DNA from: Nannocystis bainbridge
GTDB lineage: Bacteria > Myxococcota_A > Polyangia > Nannocystales > Nannocystaceae
Direction of reading: 5' to 3'
NCBI RefSeq assembly: GCF_028368995.1
Contig: NZ_JAQNDL010000004.1
Location: forward strand, 480,001 to 544,000
Length of the DNA stretch: 64,000 nt
This document shows, in pieces, positions 2,379 to 63,852 of the stretch. The first letter of the stretch is position 1; the number at the start of each line of letters is the position of its first letter. The notes under the pieces are model-generated. The model was given only the letters and a program-made list of their open reading frames with translations. It was not told the DNA's origin and searched no databases. Made by a program: the position numbers and the translations under genes.

Positions 2379-3353
2379 ATGGAGCTGTCCCTTGCGACAT
2401 CTCCGGCGCGACGCTTCACCCGCTTCATCGGCGTCGCTCTCGGCGGCGGCCGCGGCAAGACGACCGCGGTCGCTCGCCTCGAGCGCGTCGACGAGGAGGG
2501 CGAGACGCCGCGCGTGCGCCTGGCGGAGGCTCGGCTCCGCCACGGCCACCGCGGCAGCGGCGAAGAGGGCGGCGAGGCCAGCGGCGATCCGTTGTTTCGC
2601 GACGAGGTGCTGGTCGCGTACCTGCAGCGGTGGGTGACCGACGACGCGGTGGTGGCGATCGACGCGCCGCTGACGTTGCCGCCGTGCATCCGCTGTCCGC
2701 TGGCCTGTCCCGGAGTGCAGGCGTGCACCGTGCCGGTGGTGGCGTGGATGCGGAAGCACGCGCCGGCCTTGCACGCGGCCCGGCGCTCCGATCCGGGCAA
2801 GCCGGCGGTCACGCCGTACACGCAGCGCGCGGTCGACGTCCTGTTGACGCACGTGGGCCTGTCGCCGCGCGAGTCGCTGGGGCAGGGCATGGGGCCGCTG
2901 GCGGCGCGGGCGGCGTATCTGCGGCGCGTGCTGTCGCCGCTGCTGCGACTGCACGAGAACCTGATCGAGGTCCACCCGCCGGCCACGGTGACGCGGCTGT
3001 TCGGGGCCGAGGTCGAGCGTCGGCACCGGCGCAGCGACAGCGAGCAGGCGTGGGAGCTGCGCAAGCGGATGCTGACGGCGCTCGAACCGTGCCTCGCGTT
3101 CGACTTCGTGTGGCCCGAGGTTGTGGTCCGCAGCCCGCACGTATTCGACGCGGTCATCGCCGGCCTCACGGCGTTCTTGTGGGCGCATCAGAGCTGGCAG
3201 GGTCCGCTCGATCTGCAACCGGCGCAGTCTGCGGCGACTCAGGAGGCGGTCGCGCCCGATCCGCTGCGCGCCGCGATCGCGGGGCTCGAGGACCGCTGGC
3301 TCGAAGACGGCTGGATCTGGGTCCCACCGGCTCCTGGAGGCGGACGCGTGTGA
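2379..3353 (+). CDS. DUF429-like predicted nuclease (RNase H fold) with Cys cluster
   Basis: FIGVALGGGRGKTTAVARL, VVAIDAPLTLP, CIRCPLACPGVQAC, LIEVHP, FDAVIAG motifs; starts at ATG 2379 or GTG 2367, the latter overlapping the upstream stop. Confidence 0.75.
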   Translation: MELSLATSPARRFTRFIGVALGGGRGKTTAVARLERVDEEGETPRVRLAEARLRHGHRGSGEEGGEASGDPLFRDEVLVAYLQRWVTDDAVVAIDAPLTLPPCIRCPLACPGVQACTVPVVAWMRKHAPALHAARRSDPGKPAVTPYTQRAVDVLLTHVGLSPRESLGQGMGPLAARAAYLRRVLSPLLRLHENLIEVHPPATVTRLFGAEVERRHRRSDSEQAWELRKRMLTALEPCLAFDFVWPEVVVRSPHVFDAVIAGLTAFLWAHQSWQGPLDLQPAQSAATQEAVAPDPLRAAIAGLEDRWLEDGWIWVPPAPGGGRV

Positions 3354-3469
3354 TTCTGCACGATTTGTGGCAGACCCGGCCCCGCAGCGGGCCGTTGCTT
3401 CCCCTGCTTGCCTGCGATGCGCCGCCAGGTGCACAGTAGACAGGCTACAGGCCCTCGGACCCCAGACGC

Positions 3470-4477
3470 ATGCGAGACCCGGCCCACGGCAGCGACTTCA
3501 CCCCTGACGAGCTCGATCTCCTGGAGGACGCGCTCGAGTGGATGGAGGATCCCGCGCGCCGCGCCGAGCTCGAGGCGATGCCCGCGCCGCTGCGTCAGCG
3601 CGCCGACGAGTACGCGTCGATCCTGGCGATGACGCGCGAGGCGATGCCCGCGGAGGACGTGGCGCCGGGGGTGCTCGACGGCATCCTCGCCGAGGCCCGG
3701 CGATCGGCGCCGCCGCCTTCGCAGCCGGCGGCCGAGGGCCCGAGCCTGTGGGAGCGGCTGCGACGCTCGTTCCTGCTGCCGGGCGTGGCGCTGGCCGGGA
3801 CCGCCGCGCTGCTGCTGTGGGTGGCGCGGCCGACCGACGAGGCGGGGCCGTCGATCCGCGAGGAGGCGGCGCCTTCGCCCGCGCCGGCGGCTCCCGAGGC
3901 CCGCGAGCCGCGAGCGGCGCCCGAGTCGGATGGCCCCAAGGACATGTCCCCGCCGACAGACGACGCGAAGGGCGAGGCTTCGGCGGCCGTCGAGGTCGCA
4001 CCTGCGCCGGCCGCCGACGCGGCGAGCGTGCCCGGGGCGGTCTACCAGGAGCCGGCGTCGCCGGCGATGAAGGCCATGCGCGGCGGAGCGCCGGCCAAGA
4101 AGAAGGCGATCGACGTCGACGAGGGGCCGTTGCCGGGCATCTCCGTGCCGGAGGCGCAGCGCATCGACGCCGACAAGGAGTCGGTCCGCGATCAGCTCGA
4201 GAGCGGCGACCGGGCCCGCAACAAGGGCCGCTGCGACGTCGCCGAGGCCGAGTACGCGGCGGTGGCGAACAGCAACGGACCGGCGGCAGAGCGGGCGCGA
4301 GCCCTCGCGGGCCTGGGGCTGTGTCGAGAGGCCGCCGGCAAGTCGGCGGACGCGGAGCGCTACTTCGACGCGGCGCGCTCGCTCGACTCCGGGGTCGAGC
4401 GCTGGCTCGGCGGCGAGTCCGAGGTGGTGAAGAAGAAGACCACGAAGATGGCCAAGCCGAAGAGCGAGGCGCCGTAG
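3470..4477 (+). CDS. membrane-anchored hypothetical protein (anti-sigma-like N-terminus, TM helix, Pro/Ala linker, C-terminal TPR-like helices)
   Basis: TM segment FLLPGVALAGTAALLLWVA; C-terminal RARALAGLGLCREAAGKSADAERYFDAA resembles a TPR. Confidence 0.65.
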   Translation: MRDPAHGSDFTPDELDLLEDALEWMEDPARRAELEAMPAPLRQRADEYASILAMTREAMPAEDVAPGVLDGILAEARRSAPPPSQPAAEGPSLWERLRRSFLLPGVALAGTAALLLWVARPTDEAGPSIREEAAPSPAPAAPEAREPRAAPESDGPKDMSPPTDDAKGEASAAVEVAPAPAADAASVPGAVYQEPASPAMKAMRGGAPAKKKAIDVDEGPLPGISVPEAQRIDADKESVRDQLESGDRARNKGRCDVAEAEYAAVANSNGPAAERARALAGLGLCREAAGKSADAERYFDAARSLDSGVERWLGGESEVVKKKTTKMAKPKSEAP

Positions 4478-4515
4478 GTCGATCGCGGCGCGGGCCCCGG
4501 CCGACGCGCGGGACA

Positions 4516-4599
4516 TGGGCTTCGGGGCATGTCGCAGAGGCCAGGTGCGTTCGAGCATGTTCTGAACGACATGACGGAAGATACATGTCGTCAGGGACA
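4516..4599. repeat. array of 6 degenerate 14-bp TGTC-N6-GACA units
   Basis: tgggcttcggggca|tgtcgcagaggcca|ggtgcgttcgagca|tgttctgaacgaca|tgacggaagataca|tgtcgtcagggaca in exact 14-bp register. Confidence 0.85.
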
Positions 4600-4697
4600 G
4601 TCGCCTGCGCGGCGGGCAAGGGGTCGCAAGGACCAGGCGCGCCGAACGGTTCAGTGCAGGCGCGTCGGTGCCCGCGGGCTCACGCTGAACGGGCAGG

Positions 4698-4909
4698 CGC
4701 AGCGATGCCGCGCGGACGCGCTGCCGCTCGCATCAATCGACGTCGACCGCGAAGTCGACGCCGACGCTGAGCGTGCGGGCGCAGCGGTGCCGCGCTGCCG
4801 CTCGCATCAATCGACGTCGACCGCGACGCGACGCCGAGCGGGCTAGGGCAGCGGTGCCGCGCTGCCGCTCGCATCAATCGACGTCGACCGCGAAGTCGAC
4901 GCCGACGCT
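4698..4909. repeat. three ~60-70 bp direct repeats duplicating the 3' end of the 4874..5563 gene
   Basis: gctgccgctcgcatcaatcgacgtcgaccgcga occurs three times; the third copy contains the real stop codon. Confidence 0.9.
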
Positions 4910-7493: not shown

Positions 7494-7551
7494 ACGCTGC
7501 CGAGGTCGCCTCACGCCCGTTCGCCGACGCGAGCGGGCGTTTTGCGTCTCA

Positions 7552-8553: not shown

Positions 8554-9022
8554 CGAGATGTCCTTCGGGACATGTCCCACAGGCGGCCAGCCGCAGGACC
8601 GCGCGGCTGGCCGAGTCGCGGACGGGCGCACAGGACCGCGTGCGCCCGTCCGCTCGTGACAGCGGACGAGGCGGCGACGCCGACGCGACGGCGTGACGCA
8701 GACCGGACGAGGCACGAGACCGCGTGGCTCGTCCGGCAGCAGAAGCGACGAGGTTGCGAGGCTCGCCGCGTCGGCGCGTGAAAGCAGAGGACGAGGGTGA
8801 CGGCCGGCTCACCCGACAAGACGGCGAGCCACGAGACCGTGTGGCTCGCCGTCGCTTTCATGGAGACCGCGGGATACGCCGGCGCTGTCAGAGACGGGGA
8901 GCCTCGAGATCGTGGGACTCGACCCGGCATCTGCCGACGAGGCGCGAAGCGCTCGTGCGATGAGGAATCGGCGCCGGGCAGTGGGAATCATTCCCCCGCG
9001 TCGGTCTGGAAGTCAGTGGCTG

Positions 9023-10099: not shown

Positions 10100-10251
10100 A
10101 CTTCCCCTCCAGAGCGAAGTATGACCGGCAACACCGGACGCGCGAGCGGCGAAGCCGCCCGATCGACATCACATGTCCCCAGGGACAGATCGAGGGCGGC
10201 CCGGGCGCTGGCGCCTGGGCGGGCAGATCGACGGTCAAGCTCGACCGCGTG

Positions 10252-10992: not shown

Positions 10993-11138
10993 GGTCGGGG
11001 AGGGGGTCCGAAGGGACAGGCGAGGTGCGGGTCAGCGGTCGCGCGGGACCGTGGAGAATGGCTGCCCGAAAGGACAGGCGAAGAGACGGGGTTGCGAGGC
11101 GGAGGGGCGGGTGTTCCTCGTGGATGTCCGAAGGGACA
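10956..11138. repeat. four dispersed TGTC-N6-GACA-like sites within a locally duplicated segment
   Basis: tgcccgaaaggaca (twice), ggtccgaagggaca, and perfect tgtccgaagggaca at 11125. Confidence 0.75.
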
Positions 11139-12197: not shown

Positions 12198-12270
12198 GGC
12201 GGCAGCTCCAGGTGCGAGGGACAGGGCGAAACGGACAGGCGAGGACCGCGGTCGGATGCTGAGAGGGAAG

Positions 12271-12354
12271 GATCGCGGAGGACAGGGCGAAACGGACAGG
12301 TCGGAGAGGACAGGTCGGAGAGGACAGGTCGCGGAGGACAGGTCGGAGAGGACA
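12271..12354. repeat. array of 6 14-bp units (GGTC-N6-GACA variant)
   Basis: gatcgcggaggaca|gggcgaaacggaca|ggtcggagaggaca|ggtcggagaggaca|ggtcgcggaggaca|ggtcggagaggaca. Confidence 0.9.
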
Positions 12355-12362
12355 GGCGAGCG

Positions 12363-13355
12363 TCAGCGAAGGGCGGCGAAGTTGACGTTCTCGCCGTCGT
12401 GCACGGCGTCGACGAACTCCTGCACGACCGCGCTGATGTCGCCCGAGCGGGCCTTGCCGGCCTTGATCGCCTGCGACAGGGCGTCGGCGGCGGCGGCGTA
12501 GTCGGCCAGGCTCTCGGCGAACTGCGGCAGCCAGAACACGGCCGACGCGGCCTTCGGGTCGGAGTCGTAGGCGGCGCGGAACTCGGCGTAGGCGCCGGTG
12601 AAGGCGCCGTGGAAGGCCTCGCACACGCCGGCGGTGAACTCGTCGTGGTCGCCGATGCAGCGCACGTACGGCTTGGCCTGGATGAGGGCGTTGCGGGTGT
12701 GCCACTCGAGGCCGGCGCCGACGCGGGCCTCGATCTCGGCCAGGACCGCGGCGTCGAGCCGGCCCTGGCGGGCGGCGATCTGCTCCTCGAGGCCGCGCCG
12801 CGACTCGTCCCAGGCGCGGTAGGCGTCGCTGAAGTTGTTGTAGATCGGCGAGCGCTCGCCGTCCTCTTCGATCGAGGATGACCTGTGCGACATGTCCTCG
12901 CGGACAGCGTCGATGGTGGCGGCGAACACTTTGGAGGTGTCGTTGTAGACCGCGGCGGCCTGCTCGAGCGCCGGCTGCGGCGGCTTGAGCAGCGGCCCCT
13001 CGCGCTCGGCCTTGTCGCACTGGCCGAGCGCCTCCGGCGGGATCTCGGCCGGCGGGGTGCGGGTGCGCCCGGCGAACGCGGCCGCGCCCTCGCGGTAGGC
13101 GTCGTACAGCGGCACGCGGGTGGCGCCGACGCAGTCGACGTAGAGCCGGAGCTTGTTGAGGACGAGCTCGGGCGGCAGCCGGTCGGGCTCCTCGGGCCGC
13201 TTCTTGTCGGTCGAGGTCAGGCCCTGCTGCAGGCGCTCGCTGATCTGCCGCTGGAGCCCCGCGACGCCGCCGTTGCAGGCGAGGCCGGCGCACAGCGGCG
13301 CGGCGAGCAGCAGCCCGCGGAGCCGAGAGTCGTGCGTGGCCGGGCCCAGGGTCAT
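12363..13355 (-). CDS. putative helical lipoprotein (DUF3829/YiiG-like)
   Basis: Lipobox-like LCAGLAC; NKLRLYVDCV and CDKA...PPQPALEQAAAVY resemble DUF3829. Confidence 0.6.
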   Translation of the reverse strand: MTLGPATHDSRLRGLLLAAPLCAGLACNGGVAGLQRQISERLQQGLTSTDKKRPEEPDRLPPELVLNKLRLYVDCVGATRVPLYDAYREGAAAFAGRTRTPPAEIPPEALGQCDKAEREGPLLKPPQPALEQAAAVYNDTSKVFAATIDAVREDMSHRSSSIEEDGERSPIYNNFSDAYRAWDESRRGLEEQIAARQGRLDAAVLAEIEARVGAGLEWHTRNALIQAKPYVRCIGDHDEFTAGVCEAFHGAFTGAYAEFRAAYDSDPKAASAVFWLPQFAESLADYAAAADALSQAIKAGKARSGDISAVVQEFVDAVHDGENVNFAALR

Positions 13356-17958: not shown

Positions 17959-18054
17959 GCGAAGGGACATGTCCGATGGGACATTCCCTCGAGGACATGG
18001 GCTTCGGGGCAGGTCTTTGGGAGCATGTCCGATAGGACATGACGTGAGGCGACA
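17956..18054. repeat. array of ~7 TGTC-N6-GACA-like units beginning at the stop codon
   Basis: tgagcgaagggaca|tgtccgatgggaca|ttccctcgaggaca|tgggcttcggggca|ggtctttgggagca|tgtccgataggaca|tgacgtgaggcgaca (last unit 15 bp). Confidence 0.88.
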
Positions 18055-19704: not shown

Positions 19705-19926
19705 TGTCTCTCGGGACATGTCACTCGCGCTCGCCGAGTGGATGTCTCTCGGGACATTTCACTCGCGCGCTCGTCGGCGTCGAGTGGATGTCTCTCGGGA
19801 CGTTTCACTCGCGCGCTCGCCCGCGCCCGGCACATGTCCCGAGGGACATGTCACTCGGGACATGTGCCGGGTACATGTCTCTCGGGACATGTCACTCGCG
19901 CGCTCGCACGCATGACCCGAAGGACA
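19705..19926. repeat. dense cluster of TGTC-N6-GACA units in ~38-46 bp duplications
   Basis: Perfect sites at 19705, 19743, 19835, 19849, 19876; repeated ggatgtctctcgggaca..tcactcgcgc. Confidence 0.9.
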
Positions 19927-27668: not shown

Positions 27669-27766
27669 TGTCCGAAGGGGCAGGTCCCAAGGGGAATGTC
27701 CGAAGGGGCAGGTCTGAAGGGGCAGGTCCCAAGGGGCATGTGCCAGGGGACATGCCCGAAGGGTCA
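27669..27766. repeat. array of 7 14-bp units ending on the glmU stop codon
   Basis: tgtccgaaggggca|ggtcccaaggggaa|tgtccgaaggggca|ggtctgaaggggca|ggtcccaaggggca|tgtgccaggggaca|tgcccgaagggtca. Confidence 0.9.
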
Positions 27767-28522
27767 GGCGGTGCGGGCGGCCAGGATCTCGGCGAGGGCG
27801 GCCAGCTGCTCGGGGGTGTTGACGCCGGCGACCTCGTCGGCGGGGACCTCCACGGTGAGGACGCCGCGCTCGGCGGCGCGGGCCACCAGGTCGGTGAGGT
27901 AGATCTCTCCCTGGGCGTTGGCCTGCCCGAGGCCCGGCAGCTCGCTGCGCAGCAGCTCGGCGCGGGCGCAGTAGACCCCGGCGTTGCACTCCCGGAGCGC
28001 GCGCGTGGCCGCGTCGGCGTCGCGCTCCTCGACGACGGCGTGGATCCGCCCGCGGTCGTCGCGGACGATCCGGCCGTAGCCGTGCGGGTCTTCGGGCGTG
28101 AAGGTGGCGAGCGCGAGACCGGCGCCGCTGGCTGCGCAGGCTTCGACGAGGCCGGCGAGGGTGGCCGGTCGCAGCAGCGGGACGTCGCCCGAGAGGATGA
28201 GCACCGGACCTTCGTGGTCGGCGATCGCGGGTAGTGCGCACTGTACCGCGTGCCCGGTGCCGAGCTGCTCGGCCTGCACGACGAAGCGGAGGTCGGTGAA
28301 CACGGGCCCGAGGGCCGCTTCCACCTGCTCGGCCCCGTGACCGACGACGACGACGAGGCGGGCGACGCCGGCCGCCCGGGCGCTGCGCAGGACGTGCACG
28401 GCCAGCGGCTCGCCGGCCAGCGGGTGCAGGACCTTGGGCAGGTCGGAGCGCATGCGGGTGCCCTTGCCCGCGGCGAGGACGACGGCGATCGGCGAAACGG
28501 CGGTGACGGGCTGCTGTGGCAC
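27764..28522 (-). CDS. glmU: GlmU-like N-acetylglucosamine-1-phosphate uridyltransferase domain only
   Basis: VLAAGKGTRMRSDLPKVLH, QLGTGHAV, GDVPLL, GYGRIVR, NAQGEIYLTD, GVNT; stops at 252 aa with no hexapeptide domain. Confidence 0.85.
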   Translation of the reverse strand: MPQQPVTAVSPIAVVLAAGKGTRMRSDLPKVLHPLAGEPLAVHVLRSARAAGVARLVVVVGHGAEQVEAALGPVFTDLRFVVQAEQLGTGHAVQCALPAIADHEGPVLILSGDVPLLRPATLAGLVEACAASGAGLALATFTPEDPHGYGRIVRDDRGRIHAVVEERDADAATRALRECNAGVYCARAELLRSELPGLGQANAQGEIYLTDLVARAAERGVLTVEVPADEVAGVNTPEQLAALAEILAARTA

Positions 28523-32738: not shown

Positions 32739-32780
32739 TGAACCTCGGGACATGTCGTGTCGGACATGTCCCGAAGGTCA
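32739..32780. repeat. three 14-bp units
   Basis: tgaacctcgggaca|tgtcgtgtcggaca|tgtcccgaaggtca directly after the peptidase stop. Confidence 0.8.
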
Positions 32781-32973
32781 CGCACCTGAGGAGTGCGGCG
32801 CGCGTGGCGCGCGCCGCTCGAGGGCGAATGTCAAAGCAAGACATCCGTCCGCGGGGCGCTGGTGGAGGCGGGTGCGCGCGGCTTTATGAATGCGGCTTAA
32901 CGCCGGGTTCACCGCGAGCCGCGAGTACAGCGTTCATGCTGGCCGGGCCGCGCAGCGCGGCGCTCGGTGCTTC

Positions 32974-39480: not shown

Positions 39481-39581
39481 TGGCCTTCAAGACATGTCGA
39501 TGAGGACATGTCTCGGGGCGTGATGCGCTGAGGACGATGTGGCCTTCGGGGCATGTTCATGAGGACATGTCTCGGAAGACT
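39481..39581. repeat. two triplets of 14-bp units (59-bp duplication)
   Basis: tggccttcaagaca|tgtcgatgaggaca|tgtctcgg.. and tggccttcggggca|tgttcatgaggaca|tgtctcggaagact. Confidence 0.85.
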
Positions 39582-42919: not shown

Positions 42920-43003
42920 TGACCGCAGGCACATGTTTTAATGGACATGTTCCAGAGGACATGTCCTCGGCGGCATGTCGCGCGGGACATGCCGCTCAGG
43001 ACA
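42920..43003. repeat. array of 6 14-bp units
   Basis: tgaccgcaggcaca|tgttttaatggaca|tgttccagaggaca|tgtcctcggcggca|tgtcgcgcgggaca|tgccgctcaggaca. Confidence 0.9.
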
Positions 43004-43006: not shown

Positions 43007-47250
<4,244 letters not shown>

Positions 47251-49164: not shown

Positions 49165-49174
49165 GCGGCACGGC

Positions 49175-49258
49175 TGTACCTCGGGACATGTCCCTGGCGG
49201 CATGTCCCGAGCGACATGGGCTCGAGGGCATGTCGCTTGGAGCATGTCCTCGAGGACA
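49175..49258. repeat. array of 6 14-bp units
   Basis: tgtacctcgggaca|tgtccctggcggca|tgtcccgagcgaca|tgggctcgagggca|tgtcgcttggagca|tgtcctcgaggaca. Confidence 0.9.
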
Positions 49259-51216: not shown

Positions 51217-52281
51217 ATGCGCGAATGGGTGCTGTACGGCGCCAATGGTTACACCGGCGAGCTCATCGCCCGTCAGGCGGCCTCCGAGGGTCTGCGCCCG
51301 ATCCTGGCCGGCCGCGACGCGCCGGCGATCCGCCGGCTGGCCGGCGAACTCGGGCTCGAAGCGCGGGTGTTCGCCCTCGACGATCCGGAGGCCCTGCGCC
51401 GCGGGCTCGCAGGCGCCGCCCTGGTGCTGCACGCCGCCGGGCCGTTCTCGCGGACCAGCGCGCCGATGGTCGCGGCCTGCCTCGAGAGCGAAGTCCATTA
51501 CCTCGACATCACCGGTGAGATCCCCGTGTTCGAGGCCTGCAGGGCCCAGGACGCCCGCGCGCGCGAGCGCGGCGTGGTCCTGATGCCCGGCGTCGGCTTC
51601 GACGTGGTGCCCTCGGACTGCCTGGCCAAGGCGCTGGCCGAGGCCCTGCCGGAGGCGACGCGGCTCGAGCTGGCGATCCTGGCGCTCGGCGAGCTCAGCC
51701 GTGGCACCACCAAGACGATGATCGAGCACCTCGGCGCCGGCGGGGTGGTGCGCGAGGGCGGCCGCCTGGTCCCGATCGCCCCGGGCTCGCGCACCCGCAC
51801 CGTCCGCCTCGGCGGGCGCGAGCGCCTGGTGGTGGCGGTGCCGTGGGGCGATCTGGCGACCGCGTACGCGTCGACGGGGATCGAGAACATCACCACGTGG
51901 ATGAGCTTCCCGAAGGCGCAGATCCGCGGCATGCGGGCGCTCCGGCTGCTGGCGCCGCTGCTGCGCCTCCGGCCGGTGATCAAGGTGCTGCAGGCGCTGG
52001 TCGACCGCCGGGTCACCGGACCCGACGAGCAGGTCCGCGAGGCCGGCTCGAGCGAGATCTGGGGCCGCGTCGAGGCGCCCGACGGCCGGGCCGTGGAGGG
52101 CCGGGTGCGCACGCCCGAGGGCTACAAGTTCACGGTGATCGCGTCGCTGGCGAGCGTCCGTCGCATGCTCGAGGCGGCGCCGGCCGCCGGCTACCAGACG
52201 CCGGCGACGGCGTTCGGCAGCGGCTTCGTCGCCACGCTGCCGGGCTGCTCGCTGACGGTGCCCGAGACGGCTGGCGCTTAG
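51217..52281 (+). CDS. saccharopine dehydrogenase-like NAD(P)-binding oxidoreductase
   Basis: VLYGANGYTG, LAGR, HAAGPF, HYLDITGE, GFDVVPSD, GYQTPA. Confidence 0.92.
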   Translation: MREWVLYGANGYTGELIARQAASEGLRPILAGRDAPAIRRLAGELGLEARVFALDDPEALRRGLAGAALVLHAAGPFSRTSAPMVAACLESEVHYLDITGEIPVFEACRAQDARARERGVVLMPGVGFDVVPSDCLAKALAEALPEATRLELAILALGELSRGTTKTMIEHLGAGGVVREGGRLVPIAPGSRTRTVRLGGRERLVVAVPWGDLATAYASTGIENITTWMSFPKAQIRGMRALRLLAPLLRLRPVIKVLQALVDRRVTGPDEQVREAGSSEIWGRVEAPDGRAVEGRVRTPEGYKFTVIASLASVRRMLEAAPAAGYQTPATAFGSGFVATLPGCSLTVPETAGA

Positions 52282-52340
52282 GGCATGTTTGAACGGGCAT
52301 GTCCGAGCGGCCATGTCCGTTCGGGCATGTCCGAGCGCGG
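52272..52340. repeat. array of ~5 14-bp units spanning the stop codon
   Basis: tggcgcttagggca|tgtttgaacgggca|tgtccgagcggcca|tgtccgttcgggca|tgtccgagcg. Confidence 0.8.
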
Positions 52341-54452: not shown

Positions 54453-54512
54453 CGTGAGGCCCGAAGGACATGTCATGAGGGACAGGGCGTAAAGGACAGG
54501 TCGATGCATGTC
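54403..54512. repeat. 14-bp units within a duplicated signal-peptide start
   Basis: ggtcgcaagggaca|gggcggagaggaca and tgtcatgagggaca|gggcgtaaaggaca; translates as MHRPVLYALSLMTC followed by MRPVLSALSLATC. Confidence 0.8.
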
Positions 54513-54513: not shown

Positions 54514-56571
54514 TCACAACCACAGGGTGGCGCCGATCCGGGCGGTCAGCGGCGGGCCGGCGAGGAAGTGGAGGACGGGGATGGTGCTGCGCGGCTCGCT
54601 GCGGTCCCACCACGAGGCGTAGTGGTACTCGCCCTCTTTCCAGCCGGCGTTGGTGACGTTGTCGATCTGGAGGTCGAGCTGCAACGGGCCGACACGGTAG
54701 CCGAGGCTGAGGTCGAGCAGGGCGTAAGCCGAGGTGCGGGCGCCGTGCGGGAGGGCGCGGCTGCCGACGACGAGGAAGCGAGCGCCGGCGCGGAACCCCG
54801 AGGGGTGGACGACGGTGAGGCCCGTGGCCGACATGAACGGCGGGGCGAGCGGGACCGGGGCGCCCGAGTCGACGAAGCGGGCCTGCACGAGGCTCAGGTC
54901 CTGGCGCAGCTGTAGCCACCGCCGCGGCCACACGGCGAGGTCGAAGTCGATGCCGAGCCGACGGGTGCGGTTGAGCTCGATGTTGACGGCGGACACGTGA
55001 TCGAAGACGAGCTCGCGCGCGATCCAGGTGCCGAACAGCGACAGGCCGGCGCTGACGAGTTCGCGGTGCTGGAAGCGGGCGCCGACCTCGACGCTGTCGG
55101 AGGCGATGATGCGCGCCGGGCCGCCGCGGTAGCGATCGAGCGCGGTGTCCTCGGGCACGGCGGCGCCGCCGAGCACGGCGCGGGCCTCGGGGGCCCGCAG
55201 GCCGCGGCCGTAGGCGAGGAAGAGGTGGGCGAACGGGGCCAGGCGGACGCTGGCGTTGATGCGCGGCGAGGGCAGGGCGAGGACCTTGCGGGCGCGACGC
55301 TCTGGGTCGATAAGGTCGCGGACGTTGTAGGCGACGAGGTCGAGGCGGGCGCCGGCCTCGAGGACGAAGCGATCGACGGGCCGCCAGCGCAGGCCGGCGC
55401 GCGCGTGGGCCTGGTGCTGGCCGGCGCCGAGGTCCCAGTTGCGGGTGACGACCTCGTGGTGGGCGTCGACGCGCACGTCGTGCTGGCGGAGGAGGTCGCC
55501 CTGCCAGGCGCCGCCGGCCAGCAGCTCGACGGTGCGGTGGAGCGGGCGCCGGTACTCGAGCTGATAGCCGAGGCTGGCGAAGCGGTGCCGCTGGTTGCGA
55601 CGATCGCCGGCGAGCGGATCGAGGAGGTAGCCGGTGAAGTCCTCGACGAGGTCGAGGGCGCGCAGCTGGCCGTGGAGGCGGTGCTCGAGCTTGCCGACGC
55701 CGAGGTCGAGCTGGTGACGCAGGGCGGTGAAGAGGCGGTCGGAGCGGCCGCCGCCGTCGTCGCGGTAGACGCCGGCGAATCCGACGCGACCGCTGGCGAC
55801 GTCGTCGGCGCGCACGGCCCCGGGGGCGTCGAAGCGGGCGACGTAGACGCCGGCGGTGAGGTCGAGGGCGCCGTGGGTCTTGCTGTCGAGCAGGCGGATC
55901 TGGCCGAGGAAGGTGGCGCGCCGGGCGGCCCTGGCGGCGGCGAAGCCCTTGTCGGTCATGGCCTCGACCGCGAAGAATGTCTCTTTGGACATGTTCTTCG
56001 GGGCATGTACGAACACGCCGCGGTGCCGCAGGGTGCTGCCGAACTCGTAGCCGACCCGGCTGCCGCGCGCTTCAGGCTCGACGCCGAGGTCGAAGCGGAT
56101 GGTGCCGGCGTTGGCGAAGTTGCCCTGGTCGAGCAGGAACGGGCCCTTGTTGGCGGTGACGCGGCGGACGACCTCGGGGATGACGAAGCCGAGGTCGACG
56201 TAGCCCTGGCCGTGGATGTTGGAGAGCTCGTTGACGGTGACGCCGGCGACCTTGACCTCGATGTCGGCGCCGTGGGCCGCGTCGAAGCCGCGCATGAACA
56301 TCTGCTGGCCCTTGCCCTCGGCGCCGTGCTGGATCAGGAGGACGCCGGGCACGAGCCGCAGGAGGTCGTCGGCGCTGCGCCGACGCGGACTGGCGGCGAT
56401 CTCGGCGGGACCGACGACCCGCTGCGACGCCGTTCGCGGGCTGCGGTCGCTGACGACGACGGTGGCGTATCGCCTGTCCTTGGGGACATCATGCGCCGCG
56501 GCGGCCGCAGGGGCGGCCAGGACGGCGAGGAGCGCAAAGGCGCGCAACAGGGGCTCGCTCGGTCGGCGCAC
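54514..56571 (-). CDS. TonB-dependent receptor
   Basis: Plug ADDLLRLVPG..QHGAEGKGQQMFMRGFDAAHG...HGQGYVDL..PE; C-terminal LDLQIDNVTN...GPPLTARIGATLWL. Confidence 0.92.
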   Translation of the reverse strand: MRRPSEPLLRAFALLAVLAAPAAAAAHDVPKDRRYATVVVSDRSPRTASQRVVGPAEIAASPRRRSADDLLRLVPGVLLIQHGAEGKGQQMFMRGFDAAHGADIEVKVAGVTVNELSNIHGQGYVDLGFVIPEVVRRVTANKGPFLLDQGNFANAGTIRFDLGVEPEARGSRVGYEFGSTLRHRGVFVHAPKNMSKETFFAVEAMTDKGFAAARAARRATFLGQIRLLDSKTHGALDLTAGVYVARFDAPGAVRADDVASGRVGFAGVYRDDGGGRSDRLFTALRHQLDLGVGKLEHRLHGQLRALDLVEDFTGYLLDPLAGDRRNQRHRFASLGYQLEYRRPLHRTVELLAGGAWQGDLLRQHDVRVDAHHEVVTRNWDLGAGQHQAHARAGLRWRPVDRFVLEAGARLDLVAYNVRDLIDPERRARKVLALPSPRINASVRLAPFAHLFLAYGRGLRAPEARAVLGGAAVPEDTALDRYRGGPARIIASDSVEVGARFQHRELVSAGLSLFGTWIARELVFDHVSAVNIELNRTRRLGIDFDLAVWPRRWLQLRQDLSLVQARFVDSGAPVPLAPPFMSATGLTVVHPSGFRAGARFLVVGSRALPHGARTSAYALLDLSLGYRVGPLQLDLQIDNVTNAGWKEGEYHYASWWDRSEPRSTIPVLHFLAGPPLTARIGATLWL

Positions 56572-56863: not shown

Positions 56864-58936
56864 TCAGGCGAGCGGGTGCTCGAAGGCCGGCGGCTTGCCG
56901 CGGCTCATGGCGGTGACGCCGACCTTCGCGGCCGACTGGCACAGGCTGTCGGCCGCGCGCTGCTCCTCGAGGGCGCCGGCGGCGGCGACGTCGAGGGCGT
57001 TGGCGTCCGCGATCGTGCGGGCGAGGAGGTCGCGCAGCTGGGCGTCGAGCACGACCCCCTGCTCGTTGCGCGGATCGACGTCGCGGTCGACCTCGATCTC
57101 GGCGGGGCCGGTGCGGAACGGCGGGAGCGGAGCTGTCCCTCGGGCCAGGGCGAGGGCGAGCTCGCCGCTGGCGCGCGGCAGGTCGCGCACCGGGACGACG
57201 GCGCTGACGAGGCCGAGCTCCTGCGCGCGCGCGGCCGAGATGCTCTTGCCGGTCAGCAGCAGCTCGTTGAGGGCGGCGTAGTGCTCGGGGGCGCTGCTGC
57301 GGTGGAGCAGGTGGCAGCCGCCGAGGCCGGGGATGACGCCGACGGTCGGCTCGGGCTGGGCGATGACGGCGCCCTCGCCGGCGATGCGGGCGTGGCAGGA
57401 GCTGGCGAGCTCCATGCCGCCGCCGAGCGCGCGACCGACGATCGCGGCGACGGTCGGCTTGCCGGCGCGCAGCTTGGCGAGGGCGTGCTTCCAGCCCTGG
57501 ATCAGCGCGAGCGCGCCGTCCCGCTTGCCGAGCACGGGCACGAAGGCGCCGATGTCGGCGCCGTGGCCGAAATCGCGGTTGAAGAGGCCGTCAGGGGCGA
57601 CGACGATCGCCTCGACGGCCGGGTCGGCCTGGAGGGCGTCGACGGCCCGCCCGAGCTCGGCCAGCAAGGTGTGGCCGAGGGTCGAGCGCTTGAGCGAGAT
57701 CAGGCCGACGCCGCCGCTGACGCTGCGGCCGACGTAGATGCTGTCCCATCCGACATGTTCTCCGGGACCTGTCCGCGAGAACACGTCGAGCGGGGCGACC
57801 TCGTCGGCGCGGGTGATCTGCTGGTCGACGAGGAAGGCGCGGGTGAGCGCGGCGGCCTGCTCGAGGCCGAGCGCGGCGATCAGCGCGGGCGGGCCGTCGC
57901 GGAAGGCGAGGGCCTTCTCGGCCAGGTAGTTGAGGGCGTCGGCGCCGACGATCTTGTGGGCGAGCATGCGCGCGGTGAGGGCGAACAACATGCCGAACAT
58001 GCGCGCGCGGACGGTGGCGACGCCCTCGGGCGGGCACTTCTGGCCGCGCTCGTAGGGCCACTGCTTGCCGGGGTCGGCGATGTACGGCTTCCAGGCGTCG
58101 GGGATGGCGTAGAGGCTGCTGTCGACCTCCTCGCGCATGAGCTCCATGCAGTGGGCCGACAGGCTGTTGGCGCCGCGGATCAGGTTGTGGACGAAGAACG
58201 GCGAGGTGCCGAGCAGCTGCTTGCAGGCGTCGTCGATCTGCGCCGGGCTGAGGCCGGTGCTCTCGTGGATCCGCACGGCCTCGAGCATCATCCCGCAGAA
58301 CAGGCGGTCGGCGGCGAAGCTCGGCACGTCACCGACCGAGATCAGCGTCATGCCGGCGCGACCGAGGAAGGCCTTGATCTGCTTGAGCGTGGCGGCGCCG
58401 GTGACGGCGCCCTGCTCGGGCAGCTCCCACAACTTGTTGGTGAGGTGGGGGAAGAACGGGTGGAGGACGCCGCAGCGATCGGCGCCCGGCAGGCCGTCGA
58501 ACAGGTGACGGGTGGTGAAGCCGCTGGTGGCGGAGAAGATGAGGGCCTCGGGATCGCGGGCCCGGATGGCGGCGTAGAGCGGCTTCTTGATGGCGAGGCT
58601 CTCGGGCACGGCCTCGAACACGAGGCCGATCTTGAGCTCGGCGGGGATGTCGGCGATGCCGCCGCGGATCGGGATGATGGCCCGGGTGATGGCCTCGATC
58701 TCGGCCGGGGAGACGCGCGGGGCGAACTGCTCGGCGAGCTTGGCGGCGACCTGGTCGACGGCGGGCGAGAGGTCGAGGGCGATCACGGGCACGCCGTGGC
58801 GGGCGAGGATGCGCGCGAGCTGGCCCAGCTTGCCGAAACCGACGTTGCCGCAGCAGCCGGCGACGAGCAGGGCCCGCGGCGGACCCCCGTCGGGCTGAAA
58901 GATGGCTGCTACCGAGGGATCGCGCGCGTTTTCCAT
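56864..58936 (-). CDS. 3-hydroxyacyl-CoA dehydrogenase / enoyl-CoA hydratase fusion (HADH N-terminal, crotonase C-terminal)
   Basis: VFEAVPESLAIKK, SATSG, GVLHPFFP, DVPSFAADR; crotonase ALGGGMELA and QPEPTVGVIPGLGG. Confidence 0.9.
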   Translation of the reverse strand: MENARDPSVAAIFQPDGGPPRALLVAGCCGNVGFGKLGQLARILARHGVPVIALDLSPAVDQVAAKLAEQFAPRVSPAEIEAITRAIIPIRGGIADIPAELKIGLVFEAVPESLAIKKPLYAAIRARDPEALIFSATSGFTTRHLFDGLPGADRCGVLHPFFPHLTNKLWELPEQGAVTGAATLKQIKAFLGRAGMTLISVGDVPSFAADRLFCGMMLEAVRIHESTGLSPAQIDDACKQLLGTSPFFVHNLIRGANSLSAHCMELMREEVDSSLYAIPDAWKPYIADPGKQWPYERGQKCPPEGVATVRARMFGMLFALTARMLAHKIVGADALNYLAEKALAFRDGPPALIAALGLEQAAALTRAFLVDQQITRADEVAPLDVFSRTGPGEHVGWDSIYVGRSVSGGVGLISLKRSTLGHTLLAELGRAVDALQADPAVEAIVVAPDGLFNRDFGHGADIGAFVPVLGKRDGALALIQGWKHALAKLRAGKPTVAAIVGRALGGGMELASSCHARIAGEGAVIAQPEPTVGVIPGLGGCHLLHRSSAPEHYAALNELLLTGKSISAARAQELGLVSAVVPVRDLPRASGELALALARGTAPLPPFRTGPAEIEVDRDVDPRNEQGVVLDAQLRDLLARTIADANALDVAAAGALEEQRAADSLCQSAAKVGVTAMSRGKPPAFEHPLA

Positions 58937-62245: not shown

Positions 62246-62581
62246 GGCGGCGAAGGTAGCAGCGATGCCGCGCGCATGCAGCCGCGCGGCTTCGCGGAAC
62301 CGACGCGGGCGAGCTCTGCGAGGAACGTCGCGGATGATGAGATGCGAGATCCGTCGGGCGCCGGCTCGCGGGAGTCGATGCCGGGCGTGGGTGTGCGCAG
62401 CGGGCTGCGCCGCGACGATGGAGACAGAGGTCGCCCCGCGGCGCGCCGTGGGCGAAGGGACCGATCTGCGGCCTCGCGTGCGCGCGTGGCCGCGATCGCC
62501 GTTGCCGGGGTCCGGCGGTGATCGCCCGCACTTCAGGCGCACACGCGGCGACGCTAGCGTCGGACGCAGGAGGTGTTCGGC

Positions 62582-63661
62582 ATGCGGGGGACGTGGACGA
62601 TCGCGGCGGTGTTGGTGCTCGGAGGTTGTGGCGACAGCGGGCCGGGGACCGGCACGGGAGGGATCAGCGAGGGCACGACGACGGCGGCGTCGACCGATCC
62701 GATGACGACGACGACGGGGCCGACGACCTCGGAGCCGGAGCCGACGACATCGACGACGACCACCACCACGATGACGCCGACGACGACCTCGCCGACCACC
62801 GGCGAGCCGGCGGAGTGTCAGACGGCCGCCGATTGTCAGGCGCCGACCTGCCAGGCGCCGACCTGCGAGGCGGGGGCGTGCGGGACGATGAACATGGCCG
62901 AAGGGACAGCCGTGGACGACCTGCCCGGCGACTGTCGGGCCACGGTGTGCGACGGGGCCGGCGGGACCAAGGAGATCCCGATCGACGATCCGCCGTCGCA
63001 GGCCGCGGGCGACTGCAAGCTGGTGGGATGTCTTCAGGGACAGGTGGAGTACACGCCGGCCGACGACGATCTGCCCAGCGACGGCAACGACTGCACGATC
63101 GACACCTGCATGACCGGCGAGGCGGTGTTCACGGCCAAGCCGATGCACAGCCCGTGCGGGCCGATGGGGTCGCAGTTCTGCCACGCCGACGCGAGCTGCC
63201 AGGCGTGCAAGGAGGTCACCGACGCGTGCGAGGACTACGGGTCGGAGCCGCACGAGACGCAGGCGACCGCCCACAGCCTCGGCGAGATCACCGACGCCGA
63301 CGCCAACGGGTCGTTCGCGTGCGGCACGGTCCAGGGCGCCGGCGACGTCGACTGGTTCACGTTCTCCGGCGTCGACGCGTTCCTCAACATGGTCGACCCG
63401 TCGCGCACGCTGGTGGCCGAGAACGACGCGGGGCGGCTGTGCGTGTACATGCAGTGCGAGAAGGGCACGACGACGGTGACGTGCGGGGCCAACGACACGC
63501 CCGACACCGCGCCGCTGGGCCAGAAGGGCTGCTGCGGGCAAGGCACGGTGTCGCCAGGGCTGAACTGCACGGGCCTCGACGACTCGGCCAAGGTGTGGAT
63601 CAAGGTCGACAACCCGGACATGCTGGCCTGCGTGCCGTACCGGCTCGACTATCACTTCTAG
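62582..63661 (+). CDS. Cys-rich lipoprotein with Thr-rich linker and pre-peptidase-C-like C-terminal domain
   Basis: Lipobox LGGC; poly-Thr linker; DGNDCTIDTC repeats; EPHET...DVDWFTF...YRLDYHF. Confidence 0.8.
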   Translation: MRGTWTIAAVLVLGGCGDSGPGTGTGGISEGTTTAASTDPMTTTTGPTTSEPEPTTSTTTTTTMTPTTTSPTTGEPAECQTAADCQAPTCQAPTCEAGACGTMNMAEGTAVDDLPGDCRATVCDGAGGTKEIPIDDPPSQAAGDCKLVGCLQGQVEYTPADDDLPSDGNDCTIDTCMTGEAVFTAKPMHSPCGPMGSQFCHADASCQACKEVTDACEDYGSEPHETQATAHSLGEITDADANGSFACGTVQGAGDVDWFTFSGVDAFLNMVDPSRTLVAENDAGRLCVYMQCEKGTTTVTCGANDTPDTAPLGQKGCCGQGTVSPGLNCTGLDDSAKVWIKVDNPDMLACVPYRLDYHF

Positions 63662-63737
63662 GCGCGGGGCTGCGGAGCGGCAGCGGCGGGACGGGCTGCA
63701 TCGCGGGGCGGGGACGCAGTGGCGCTCCTGCTGGTGA

Positions 63738-63852
63738 TGTCTCGAGGGGCGAGTGTGCTTCGATGTGTCCCAAGGGACATGTTGATCTCTCGTGCCTCGA
63801 TATGTCCCGAAGGACAGACGATCGCGCTTGCATCGAAGTGTCTCGAAGGACA
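63738..63852. repeat. cluster of TGTC-N6-GACA sites at ~36-37 bp spacing
   Basis: Perfect sites at 63766, 63803, 63839; degenerate site at 63738. Confidence 0.85.

Follow-up and report, generated by a model that had tools for sequence, protein, structure and literature searches.

The window, by which we mean the whole 64-kb stretch of Nannocystis DNA analysed here, carries 30 exact copies of the palindrome TGTC-N6-GACA (pattern count), lying past the ends of genes on both strands and inside some of them (table 1). All 29 positions given in an earlier note on this DNA are exact matches, and the additional copy is at 44143. The same note's estimate of less than one copy expected per 64 kb agrees with dinucleotide-preserving shuffles of the window (mean 0.54, largest 4; 0 of 100 shuffles reach 30).

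Table 1. Units and arrays of the palindrome in the window, with their state at orthologous loci and RNA folds.
Positions	Feature	Gene context	Other genomes; repeats and folding
2386..2399	Single unit	15 nt past stop of + gene 1831-2370	Half-sites identical in 5/5 syntenic genomes; centre differs in G010
3945..3958	Intragenic unit	Gene 3470-4477 (+)	Kept in 4/5 syntenic genomes
4530..4599	Three units, 28-bp spacing; 4530 and 4558 degenerate, 4586 exact	Convergent region 4477-4874	Units in 5/5 other genomes, differing in number, with 75-bp block repeats
8559..8572	Single unit and adjoining further TGTCC		Aligned, kept in G001 and G003
10174..10187	Single unit	64 nt past stop of - gene 10252-10992	Same position 5/5; half-sites kept or 1 change; centre cccagg, elsewhere tggaag/tggagg/tgaaga
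11019..11138	Three units, two with degenerate left half TGNC	Past stop of - gene 11157-12197	2-5 units in 55-100 bp block repeats
12261..12356	Period-14 direct array, junction GACAGGTC		TRF 5.6 copies (12278-12356), consensus GAGGACAGGTCGGA; shorter arrays, same place, in 5 other genomes
12893..12906	Intragenic unit	Gene 12363-13355 (-)	Identical 5/5
17964..18045	Array, about 6 phased units, 2 exact	Between convergent 17137-17958 (+) and 18120-19589 (-); starts 11 nt past stop	Fold -39.7 kcal/mol, z -3.0
19705..19911	Array, 5 exact and degenerate units; 38-46-bp blocks and period-14 core		TRF 19724-19911, 19828-19898 (5.1 copies); orthologues not alignable, yet arrays in all
27670..27768	Longest period-14 array of the window, GGGCA variant	Convergent region 27567-27764	TRF 7.1 copies, consensus GTCCGAAGGGGCAG
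32747..32785	Two abutting units, long hairpin	16 nt past stop of 31843-32736 (+)	Fold -35.3 kcal/mol, z -4.5; flanking GGACATG cores kept 5/5
39495..39575	Unit cluster	Past stop of - gene 39597-41804	
42410..42423	Unit	Weakly supported ORF or variable region	
42920..43003	Array, about 6 phased units	Ends 4 nt before stop of - gene 43007-45430	TRF 42957-43003; fold z -5.2
44143..44156	Intragenic unit	Gene 43007-45430 (-)	Half-sites kept 5/5
45562..45601	Unit and degenerate neighbour		Half-sites kept 5/5, centre and flanks changed; found by TRF
49174..49258	Array, 6 phased units	Fills convergent region 49164-49304	Fold -63.5 kcal/mol, z -7.6; in G010 and G001 different genes inserted, every gene end with units
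52281..52337	Period-14 array, GGGCATGTCC variant	Fills 63-bp convergent region	TRF 4.1 copies
54457..54500	Two or three units	61-bp gap, tandem - genes 54514-56571 / 53694-54452	Gap 23-244 bp; units in 4/5, in G003 only a unit-like degenerate stretch
55978..55991	Exact match, probably chance		5/5 other genomes: GGCCA for GGACA, coding stretch otherwise identical
56475..56488	Intragenic unit	Gene 54514-56571 (-)	Half-sites kept 5/5, centre varies
57742..57755	Intragenic unit	Gene 56864-58936 (-)	Identical 5/5
63029..63042	Intragenic unit	Gene 62573-63661 (+)	4/5
63766..63852	Three exact units, 37- and 36-bp spacing	About 100 nt past stop of 62573-63661 (+)	

Abundance and position relative to genes

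Across the genome scanned (11 Mb in five contigs, 71.5% G+C, extreme GC3), a TGTC/GACA spacer scan returned 3663 copies at N6 and 29-155 at each of N0-N5 and N7-N15; the N6-specific excess, a check put forward in the earlier note, holds genome-wide. With the half-sites extended to TGTCC/GGACA, 1987 exact copies are found at N4 against 3-16 at neighbouring spacers and, at up to one mismatch, 6195 against 86-254 at other spacers; the extended consensus is (A/C)TGTCC-N4-GGACA(T/G), and that of the left flank G/A-A-C-A. Genome-wide, GACATGTC occurs 2237 times and TGTC-N10-TGTC, in 14-bp register, 1576 times, and the commonest 16-mer word has only 43 copies. The motif is indeed pervasive, with 2681 clusters (about one per 4 kb) and a fairly even density on all five contigs (23-105 units per full 200-kb bin). 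Inside coding sequences the excess survives a codon-aware null: 982 N6 copies stand against 55-63 in five synonymous-codon shuffles, and the other spacers tested exhibit no excess except a small one at N5 (27 vs. 7-13).

Units peak 2-22 nt past the stop codon, the closest starting 2 nt past it. Among 6519 genes, 1716 have a unit between 60 nt before and 400 nt after the stop, and in 637 the first unit falls 0-30 nt past it; upstream of starts the profile is flat. Gene positions were taken from a custom, crude GC3-based caller (77-79% of each contig called coding), so that counts by intergenic type are approximate: at gaps of 80-199 bp a unit is present at 503 of 847 convergent 3' ends and 181 of 811 tandem ones, and density is 1.77 per kb in convergent versus 0.49 per kb in divergent regions. 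When intergenic regions of 250-800 bp are divided into deciles running from the stop to the following start, the unit counts are 116, 93, 72, 55, 35, 35, 35, 24, 17, and 16, and this stop-ward gradient persists in long convergent regions, where no promoter needs avoiding. About 85% of copies lie outside genes; about 500 units are intragenic, roughly 9-16 times a codon-aware null, sharing the extended consensus and spreading evenly along genes. Of the 104 tRNA/tmRNA genes predicted, just 9 are followed by a unit within 150 nt, and thus the motif is not a general transcript-end signal. Canonical terminators (GC hairpin plus T tract) are rare in the 40 kb scanned, and two convincing ones (16998-17028 and 56809-56835) stand at gene ends without the motif. 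Clusters had been described as recurring regardless of the genes around them; they are instead anchored to stop codons, reach maximum density between convergent genes and avoid promoter regions. The parallel claim that this is no ordinary regulon is supported. Such anchoring suggests a role at gene ends, as with REP/BIME elements, rather than in segregation or nucleoid occlusion.

Half-sites, arrays, and evolutionary range

The two half-sites differ in tolerance from position to position. Single changes at G1 or C12 are found in at most 25 copies each, versus 1987 for TGTCC-N4-GGACA, and any one change at position 2 or 11 in 178-451; roughly every second unit is mismatched at 2/11, halfway along its 5-bp stem. 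Symmetric positions are independent, with Watson-Crick pairing of 0.591 at 4/9 (0.571 expected) and 0.330 at 5/8 (0.333 expected), and almost no covariation was found at either pair across the genome's units. In the 1171 of 3663 units that are isolated, flank pairing is 0.526 at -1/+14 (0.489 expected) and at expectation elsewhere; stems extended by at least 5 bp number 36, against about 10 expected. Given no covariation at 4/9, 5/8, or the flanks of isolated units, about a third of units would thus be 4-5 bp stems. No T tract follows the unit in the position table. Half-site independence, the lack of stem extension, near-invariant G1/C12, and loose 2/11 are easier to reconcile with a dimeric sequence reader than with a plain hairpin; a dimeric DNA-binding protein had been proposed in the earlier note. 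A hint of RNA-level pairing is given by the compensatory TGCC...GGCA form (146 vs. about 60, about 2.4 times expectation) and, on the sense strand of tandem 3' regions, by the G.U-compatible variant (T,G), with 113 copies against 61 of its mirror (C,A), and by GGGCATGTC, with 131 against 76 of GACATGCCC; a transcription-linked mutation bias would yield the same sense-strand asymmetry.

Units occur singly or in arrays that reach 7 copies in 14-bp phase, distances between successive units peaking at 14 (144), 28 (88), 42 (61), and 56 (36). Runs of 6-7, as first described, hold when degenerate copies are counted (TRF 7.1), exact-only runs being shorter; the genome's largest exact-unit cluster numbers 9. 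Since abutting units resemble or complement each other in their centres no more than the null or random pairs do, the 14-bp register is not a relic of slippage, an origin already disfavored in the earlier note. Block duplications of 38-112 bp are seen around arrays. Folded as RNA, arrays form strong hairpins (z down to -7.6 in ten stretches folded), 3 of the 10 having z above -1.3.

Both within the genome and between species, conservation holds for the half-sites and leaves the centre free. In 32 intergenic units aligned between G000 and G010, a small sample in which alignments may be pulled onto the motif, identity reaches 0.90 over the half-sites (0.97 for G1 and C12), against 0.63 for the centre and 0.73 for the far flanks. 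Single sites hold their place in 5/5 genomes with the centre altered, and motif and arrays recur at syntenic loci in five other genomes of the genus, contrary to an assembly artefact. Turnover is nonetheless fast: of 69 units with syntenic anchors on both sides, 23 cannot be aligned between two species, and each species compared has its own array sizes. The 16-mer is present in all 10 other genus genomes (16-576 copies) and in both genomes of the sister genus g2 (23 and 24); of 23 other family or class genomes, 20 lack it and three have 1 copy each (reversed control, 0-1). A second species exhibits the same spacer specificity (136 N6 vs. 0-8) and 3' anchoring. The motif is thus lineage specific, and the sister genus, with only about 24 copies, suggests that the reader predates the expansion.

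A proposed REP-like gene-end element and competing readings

The Nannocystis palindrome looks like a new, genus-specific relative of bacterial REP repeats. We tentatively favor, at a probability of about 0.4, a gene-end element of REP/BIME type in which a putative sequence-specific dimeric factor would recognise each unit. The genome carries a genus-wide family of short palindromic units (about 3700 exact, roughly 6000 or more near-exact in this genome) in which selection would keep two half-sites at a fixed distance and leave the centre free, with most units in the first tens of bases past stop codons, chiefly between convergent genes, and abutting 14-bp arrays that grow and shrink fast through block duplication. 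The factor, which like the role of the arrays we infer, would most simply be a DNA-binding protein or, alternatively, a protein reading the transcribed hairpin. Because arrays are symmetric, transcription entering from either flank would be affected; an array may act as a roadblock to it or terminate it, form a structure that protects 3' ends, or offer a landing pad for the management of supercoils, a role proposed for Escherichia coli BIMEs. A DNA-binding protein alone leaves the 2-nt proximity of units to stop codons unaccounted for, and the hints of RNA-level pairing and the strong array hairpins also sit uneasily with a reading at the DNA level.

The units share several traits with the GTAG-tagged, RAYT-associated REP/BIME elements of Enterobacteria and Pseudomonas, as presented by Di Nocera et al. 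(2013; PMC3733652): a short palindrome is repeated hundreds to thousands of times, its copies stand singly, in pairs, or in clusters, related species differ in them, and some are intragenic. Those elements too are described mostly between unidirectional and convergent genes, near stop codons, and termination, mRNA stabilisation, and supercoiling have been suggested as their roles. On the other hand, the Nannocystis unit is 14 bp long rather than 20-40 bp, has its own left flank in place of a GTAG tag and no RAYT gene found, conserves half-sites only, and combines a strict abutting register with stems that do not covary. Work on gyrase and BIME-2, and on stop-codon-proximal REPs, reportedly supports the likeness. 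Of the analogues first listed, parS, matS, NBS, and SBS are far off in number, and the REP type, the closest kind, was missing from that list. The CGTC-tagged REP superfamily, from the same paper (Di Nocera et al. 2013; PMC3733652), shares the lack of a transposase, loops of 4-5 nt, and intragenic copies; its tag is "changed to TGTC" in many repeats, and its mostly head-to-head dimers would yield a GACA/TGTC-like junction. Yet there the tag is unpaired, stems of 8-9 bp open with A-T pairs, a CCA-like tail is present, and clusters are rare, whereas in Nannocystis TGTC pairs with GACA, no further stem or CCA tail follows, and clusters are common. A four-word search of that main text returned no myxobacteria, and we found no description of the gene-end palindrome in print.

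PadR-family operators are another close kind. ATGTCC-N4-GGACAT is an instance of the PadR dyad ATGT-8N-ACAT, as given in a passage of PMC10295242, and in the sister genus the palindrome is operator-like, standing in AT-rich intergenic DNA, divergent regions included. However, the PadR Pfam family has no match in the genome (the control matches 14/14 reference genomes), and thousands of gene-end sites are unlike a repressor operator set. No regulator was seen among the 10 genes scanned beside sister-genus sites.

A somewhat unlikely alternative is that units act purely as RNA, 3' UTR hairpins that, as has been shown for E. coli REPs, end transcription or hold up 3'-5' exonucleases, no dedicated sequence reader being involved. 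A palindrome gives an identical hairpin on both transcripts, and tight post-stop placement, convergent enrichment, the surplus of G.U-compatible variants on the sense strand, array folds at z -3.0 to -7.6, and the scarcity of canonical terminators, the two convincing ones lying at motif-free ends, are all in line; yet pairing suffices for a hairpin, whereas G1/C12 are near-fixed and 2/11 mismatched in about half of units. The missing covariation and T tract, the intragenic excess, the three weakly folding stretches, and the rarity of units at tRNA genes likewise argue against it. Intrinsic (Rho-independent) terminators share the post-stop position and a symmetry suiting convergent genes, but the units lack a T tract and have short stems of conserved sequence that do not covary, and canonical terminators occur separately in the window.

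We consider it unlikely that selfishness or drive spread the units, as in a REPIN/MITE-like mini-element or an uptake-type signal, which would then accumulate where harmless and have no gene-end function. Y1/RAYT transposases had no match in G000, G008, and four g2/g4 genomes (six other genera of the family have them), no long unit is conserved, orthologous single sites keep half-sites as adjoining bases change, and the stop-ward gradient holds even where promoters are absent; such a history would nevertheless suit thousands of copies in one genus only, the fast turnover, the block duplications, and promoter avoidance with intragenic excess, a combination reported for uptake sequences and, by Di Nocera et al. 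(2013), for intragenic REPs. DUS/USS and cyanobacterial HIP1 are also lineage-specific short words in thousands of copies, genic and intergenic, with inverted DUS/USS pairs behind genes, but the Nannocystis motif, a fixed-spacing palindrome with a free centre, is largely extragenic and forms phased arrays, and known uptake sequences are unlike it. CGTC-type REPs likewise have no dedicated transposase (PMC3733652).

The earlier note's own reading, of nucleoid-organising, segregation, self-marking, or modification sites read chromosome-wide, appears distinctly improbable: anchoring to stop codons and convergent regions is unexpected for such systems, and parS/matS/NBS/SBS-type sets come nowhere near this copy number or these arrays, even if the even density, the intragenic and intergenic sites, the dimer-type half-sites, and the strict lineage specificity would agree with it. 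Finally, the idea that base composition, codon usage, or assembly produces the excess, in a genome whose G+C content and GC3 distort word frequencies, is refuted by the dinucleotide shuffles, the spacer scan, the synonymous-codon shuffles, and the motif's presence at syntenic places in five independently assembled genomes.

Copy number and anatomy of the palindrome

The perfect palindrome TGTC-N6-GACA occurs 30 times in the 64-kb window: all 29 positions counted by hand in the earlier note were recovered, with one more at 44143, and dinucleotide-preserving shuffles give 0.54, in line with the expectation of less than one copy that had been claimed. The observation is confirmed, and it is stronger than could be seen from the window alone. 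Across the Nannocystis bainbridge assembly (11.05 Mb in 5 contigs, 71-72% G+C; window at C4:480001-544000), the N6 spacing suspected of being specific has 3663 copies, against 29-155 for each of the remaining spacers in the range N0-N15. The extended form TGTCC-N4-GGACA is present in 1987 exact copies versus 3-16 at neighbouring spacers, in 6195 copies with at most one mismatch versus 86-254 at other spacers, and in 13080 with at most two mismatches versus 1730-4079; since these mismatch-tolerant counts lie far above those of other spacers, the family comprises roughly 6000-10000 members. The most frequent non-coding 10-mers are GGACATGTCC-like words, plus a GGGCATGTCC variant, and a search by k-mer counts for a long repeat behind the units found none, the top 16-mer having 43 copies only.

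Units frequently abut. The junction GACATGTC occurs 2237 times in the genome, the spacing between successive exact units peaks at 14 bp (144), 28 (88), 42 (61), and 56 (36), and period-14 arrays detected by TRF reach 7.1 copies in the window, agreeing with the runs of up to 6-7 units noted by eye. Grouped at gaps of at most 150 bp, the exact units fall into 2681 clusters, of which 2038 consist of one unit. In non-coding DNA the word GGACA is accompanied by its N4 partner in 48% of cases and by its junction partner in 34%; because the former is commoner, the N6 unit is the primary association.

A position table of the 3663 units gives the consensus (A/C)TGTCC-N4-GGACA(T/G), with 854 distinct centre hexamers and flanks (G/A-A-C-A and T-G-T-C) lacking a GTAG tag. 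With the other nine positions fixed, substitutions of G1 or C12 (unit positions numbered 0-13) leave at most 25 copies each versus 1987, and the six single substitutions at position 2 or 11 have 178-451 copies each. The two halves vary independently, complementarity being 0.591 observed versus 0.571 expected at the symmetric pair 4/9 and 0.330 versus 0.333 at 5/8. A compensatory TGCC...GGCA form reaches about 2.4 times expectation (146 vs ~60); the remaining compensatory pairs are not raised (G-C 78 vs 76, A-T 25 vs 21 expected). Where no half-site adjoins the unit (1171 units), flank pairing is not above composition expectation, and the stem extends outward by at least 5 bp in only 36 (about 10 expected). 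The unit is 14 bp long with a self-complementary part of 4-5 bp; arrays do fold into long hairpins. The earlier argument against minisatellite slippage is borne out by the 144 pairs at 14-bp spacing, in which centre identity does not exceed the null distribution, and copied blocks appear at 42-bp spacing only (15 of 61 pairs match at 5 or more of the 6 centre bases). Arrays were also considered as large perfect palindromes or direct repeats, a description rejected since abutting centres are neither complementary nor identical beyond a random-pair null.

Placement at gene ends and conservation between species

Placement was assessed with two devices: gene calls from our own GC3-based ORF picker, which are crude and make 77-79% of each contig coding, and GC3 periodicity in the 120 nt on each side of every unit. 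By periodicity, 49% of units lack a coding flank versus 17% of random positions, 790 stand after a gene end and 344 before a gene start, and 566 (15%) lie inside genes versus 53% of random positions. Density per kb is 1.77 in convergent, 0.83-0.94 in tandem, and 0.49 in divergent intergenic regions. For the 6519 high-GC3 genes, the first exact unit lies 0-30 nt past the stop in 637, and 1716 have a unit between -60 and +400 nt of it; the profile upstream of gene starts is flat. Mapped base by base, the nearest units start 2 nt past the stop codon, and no unit overlaps it. Within intergenic regions of 250-800 bp, counts descend from 116 units in the decile nearest the upstream stop to 16 in that nearest the downstream start; units lean toward the stops in long convergent regions and lie mid-region in long divergent ones. 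Allowing one mismatch, a unit is found at 503 of 847 convergent gene ends with a gap of 80-199 bp, at 177 of 414 with a gap of 30-79 bp, and at 12-28% of tandem gene ends. The same holds in 476 kb of another Nannocystis genome, G010, where the N6 form is found 136 times and other spacers 0-8 times; of 78 first units, 22 are no more than 20 nt away from a stop. Thus the earlier picture of a pervasive cis-element, specific to its lineage and with sites patterned as for a dimer, stands, whereas its placement regardless of genes does not, the units being tied to gene ends; the interpretation built on it is partly supported.

Inside genes, units are sparse (0.04-0.10 per kb), with no trend against gene length, yet exceed a codon-aware null: 982 units fall within the interiors of 5299 long high-GC3 ORFs, a figure inflated by over-long ORF calls, versus 55-63 in five synonymous-codon shuffles. 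Of the 566 in the stricter periodicity class, 488 lie within a called gene on the same strand. In-gene units have the same extended consensus as elsewhere and are evenly spread along genes, and six of those in the window are retained in four or five of the five other genomes. The unit at 55978, present in N. bainbridge alone among the compared genomes, appears to be a chance match.

Synteny with five further genomes of the genus extends over the entire window, DNA identity of the genes being 80-94%. The window's peptidase S46 gene has 90-92% protein identity to five named Nannocystis records with the same surrounding gene order. Stretches of 76-80 kb containing the syntenic region hold 26-37 exact units in each of the five. 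In the window's contig, 69 exact units have syntenic anchors on both sides, and 46 of these fall in an aligned block. At the single site 10174 a unit occupies the same spot in all five, its centre changing from cccagg to tggaag and similar. As had been noted within the window, half-sites are kept and centres vary: identity to G010 over 32 aligned intergenic units is 0.90 for half-sites and 0.63 for centres. By position it is 0.97 at G1/C12, 0.84 at position 2, 0.78 at position 11, 0.78 at 4/9, and 0.73 in the far flanks, a profile of n=32 only whose alignments may be pulled toward the motif; it parallels the information content measured within the genome. Between species the array regions are not alignable, yet arrays of differing copy number are present there in every species, along with block repeats of 38-112 bp, and where whole genes have been inserted in other species, units flank each gene end.

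The 16-mer ATGTCC-N4-GGACAT has 652 copies in N. bainbridge; each of the 10 other genomes of the genus also contains it, with 16-576 copies, the smaller counts coming from incomplete assemblies. A survey of related genomes, proposed at the outset, counted 23 and 24 copies in the sister genus g2 (two genomes), 22 in another sister genus (g4), and almost none in other genomes of the family and class: in 23 of these, four of them of 9.6-12.3 Mb, the 16-mer is absent from 20 and single in three. The reversed pattern, used as a control, scores 0-1 in every genome. The evidence from g4 is weak because the 8 of 22 sites examined in G013, which were chosen for their common centre, are copies of one IS-like coding repeat. 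This multi-copy repeat (L136-L143), with one exact 16-mer in each of the 8 copies examined, is probably an insertion-sequence transposase gene. The g2 palindromes (genomes of ~60% G+C) have AT-rich centres and stand in AT-rich intergenic DNA, at some sites after stop codons and at others between divergent genes.

A proposed protein reader and its alternatives

We favor a gene-end element read by a protein, to which we assign a probability of about 0.42. Several features point to a reader of sequence: the fixed spacing; the near-invariant G1/C12 beside a loose mid-stem 2/11; independent halves, the lack of stem extension, and a free, fast-evolving centre; the in-gene excess; and the small, operator-like set of sites in a sister genus.

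That the units act as plain RNA hairpins is rather unlikely, even though they stand directly after stop codons and between convergent genes. Of ten folded stretches, six gave array folds with z of -3.0 to -7.6, but the other four gave -2.2, -1.3, -0.8, and -0.3. In tandem 3' regions, the sense strand has an excess of G.U-compatible variants, (T,G) 113 vs (C,A) 61, and likewise GGGCATGTC 131 vs GACATGCCC 76 and GGCATGTCC 108 vs GGACATGCC 69. This bias runs opposite to the local base composition, in which C and T are slightly in excess; it is suggestive at most, since a transcription-linked mutation bias predicts the same. Centre orientation shows no bias relative to the upstream gene. An intrinsic terminator is expected to have a T/U tract after a GC-rich stem-loop, which is absent at the units: the sense-oriented table of the 790 gene-end units has no T tract past position +16. 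As a weak test of a general terminator role, units lie downstream (within 150 nt) of 9 of 104 predicted tRNA/tmRNA genes and upstream of 3; the window's tRNA genes at 61238-61311 (+) and 61364-61437 (+) have no unit after either. Rfam covariance models give no match at the motif, the window's matches being the two tRNAs and a TPP riboswitch. A search with window positions 16000-21000 listed no RNA dataset and five metagenomic ones that share 6-7% of its words, and no RNA-seq run of N. bainbridge was among the entries.

Selfish or drive-type spread without a host function we consider unlikely. A search for a mover found no RAYT/Y1 transposase, PF01797 having 0 matches in the N. bainbridge genome (90% complete). 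It also has 0 in five further motif-bearing genomes (G008 of Nannocystis and G011, G039, G013, and G040 of the sister genera), with matches present in six other genera of the family and in control genomes.

More improbable still is a role in chromosome-wide organisation or marking. The sites are spread fairly evenly along the contigs in 200-kb bins and number in the thousands; parS, matS, NBS, and SBS comprise tens of sites, with an ori- or ter-related distribution and a known reader family. As the units are tied to gene ends, we place them with REP/BIME-like elements and not with segregation or nucleoid-occlusion sites. An artefact has a negligible probability.

As to who might read the gene-end element, HTH_Crp_2 has 13 matches in N. 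bainbridge, six of them strong; in CRP-type sites the half-sites are separated by 2 bp more than here. The geometry of a PadR regulator fits, the 652 copies of ATGTCC-N4-GGACAT satisfying the PadR operator dyad ATGT-8N-ACAT (PMC10295242), yet PadR was rejected as the reader: PF03551 has 0 matches in N. bainbridge and matches in 14 of 14 control genomes. Around 16 sites in G011 (g2), 10 neighbouring ORFs were scanned and include no DNA-binding protein; among them are a desaturase, TonB-C (twice), a hydrolase, CAP, and MoCF.

A more specific and rather doubtful proposal is that Nannocystis made genome-wide gene-end punctuation out of an ancestral regulator's operator through a dedicated dimeric protein. 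The sister genus has about 24 sites, and the Nannocystis protein would read at least 6000 palindromes, which, stacked in 14-bp register after stops, would mark transcription-unit ends and insulate them from both directions. If true, gene ends would be marked here by a protein that recognizes a specific sequence, a system without a described bacterial counterpart. Myxobacterial genomes are very large and G+C-rich, and their transcription-unit ends are poorly known; in the window canonical terminators are rare, and the palindrome stands at over half of the mid-sized convergent gene pairs. Should a specific factor read the units, they would offer a tractable case of sequence-defined gene-end marking and of a small binding-site set expanded about 27-fold within one genus.

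Relation to REP elements and local features of the window

A literature search found no bacterial description of the motif, the GGACATGTCC matches listed being non-bacterial and mostly p53 sites. A palindrome with a free centre is unlike the DNA uptake sequences (DUS/USS) known to us. The closest known kind is the REP family, whose ecology the Nannocystis units share. REPs are 20-40 bp palindromes found mostly between unidirectional and convergent genes, some being intragenic, and often near or overlapping stop codons; GTAG-tagged families have RAYTs, whereas CGTC-tagged families have no transposase, stems of 8-9 bp, loops of 4-5 nt, a CCA tail, and a tag that is often TGTC (Di Nocera et al., PMC3733652). 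The main text of that paper names no myxobacterium. Like GTAG-type REPs, the units are high-copy, extragenic, convergent-rich palindromes (3663 exact; 1.77 vs 0.49 per kb in divergent regions), but they have neither the GTAG tag nor a RAYT gene. The unit measures 14 bp with 4-5 bp of self-complementarity, the GTAG-type imperfect palindrome 20-40 nt with a stem of 5-13 bp. With the CGTC type they share the TGTC end, a 4-nt centre, and the lack of a transposase, but not the 8-9 bp stem or the CCA tail. Unlike both superfamilies, they carry no tag outside the stem, and they are distinct in their 14-bp register and half-site-only conservation. If they are REP-like passengers, the REP phenomenon would extend to Myxococcota, without a transposase and with a 14-bp unit conserved in its half-sites only, a form hard to fit to the RAYT model. 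For practical purposes the motif marks the genus, probably gives rise to assembly breaks and gene-order variation, and is to be considered when moving or engineering Nannocystis biosynthetic genes.

In 40 kb of the window 16 terminator-like sites were listed, two of them convincing (table). Three unit-bearing intergenic regions, beginning at 17958, 42515, and 49164, are spots of gene gain or loss between species. The ~450-bp gene missing from N. bainbridge carries a conserved in-frame unit in the other five genomes, exact in three and with GACC for GACA in two.

Features of the window near units and gene ends
Position	Strand	Feature	Remarks
4717-4909		Tandem repeat, 67 bp, 2.7 copies (TRF)	Spans stop of gene 4874-5563
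7544-7811		Tandem repeat, 88 bp, 3.0 copies (TRF)	
16979-17137		Site of ~450-bp gene in five other genomes, absent in N. bainbridge	Between S46 peptidase and aminoglycoside N-acetyltransferase-like genes
16998-17028	+	Canonical GC-hairpin and T-rich terminator	Directly after S46 peptidase stop; gene end without motif
17958-18120		Gene gain/loss region	2.2-kb insertions in four other genomes
32890-37554		DabA-like inorganic-carbon transporter subunit gene, then proton-antiporter-like (DabB-type) gene	
39040-39320		Dispersed repeat, ~270 bp	Partial second copy ~39335-39420; adjoins motif cluster
42515-43007		Gene gain/loss region	Variable content of 1.5-1.8 kb between species
42913-42930		Weak terminator-like site, 5 pairs	Edge of array 42920-43003
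47159-47251	-	TPP riboswitch (RF00059, 61.6 bits)	Upstream of - strand gene 45427-47121
47614-49164		DUF4215 cysteine-rich repeat protein gene	Internal 96-bp and 192-bp DNA repeats
49164-49304		Gene gain/loss region	Different genes inserted: kinase-like gene in G010, repeat protein in G001 (both Nannocystis)
56809-56835	-	Canonical GC-hairpin and T-rich terminator	Directly after stop of gene 56864-58936; gene end without motif

The ~270-bp dispersed repeat has no Rfam match, and a DNA search that used window positions 20001-40000 as query showed that each of the five other genomes has dozens of copies, 69-83% identical. Orthologous regions contain block repeats similar to the tandem repeats found by TRF, duplicating a gene end plus its unit. 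Further families typical of myxobacteria are also encoded in the window (DUF4388 and a MopE-like motif). Finally, all 4-kb bins over the 64 kb have positive GC skew and the cumulative skew climbs steadily; the window therefore lies within one replichore, without an origin or terminus.
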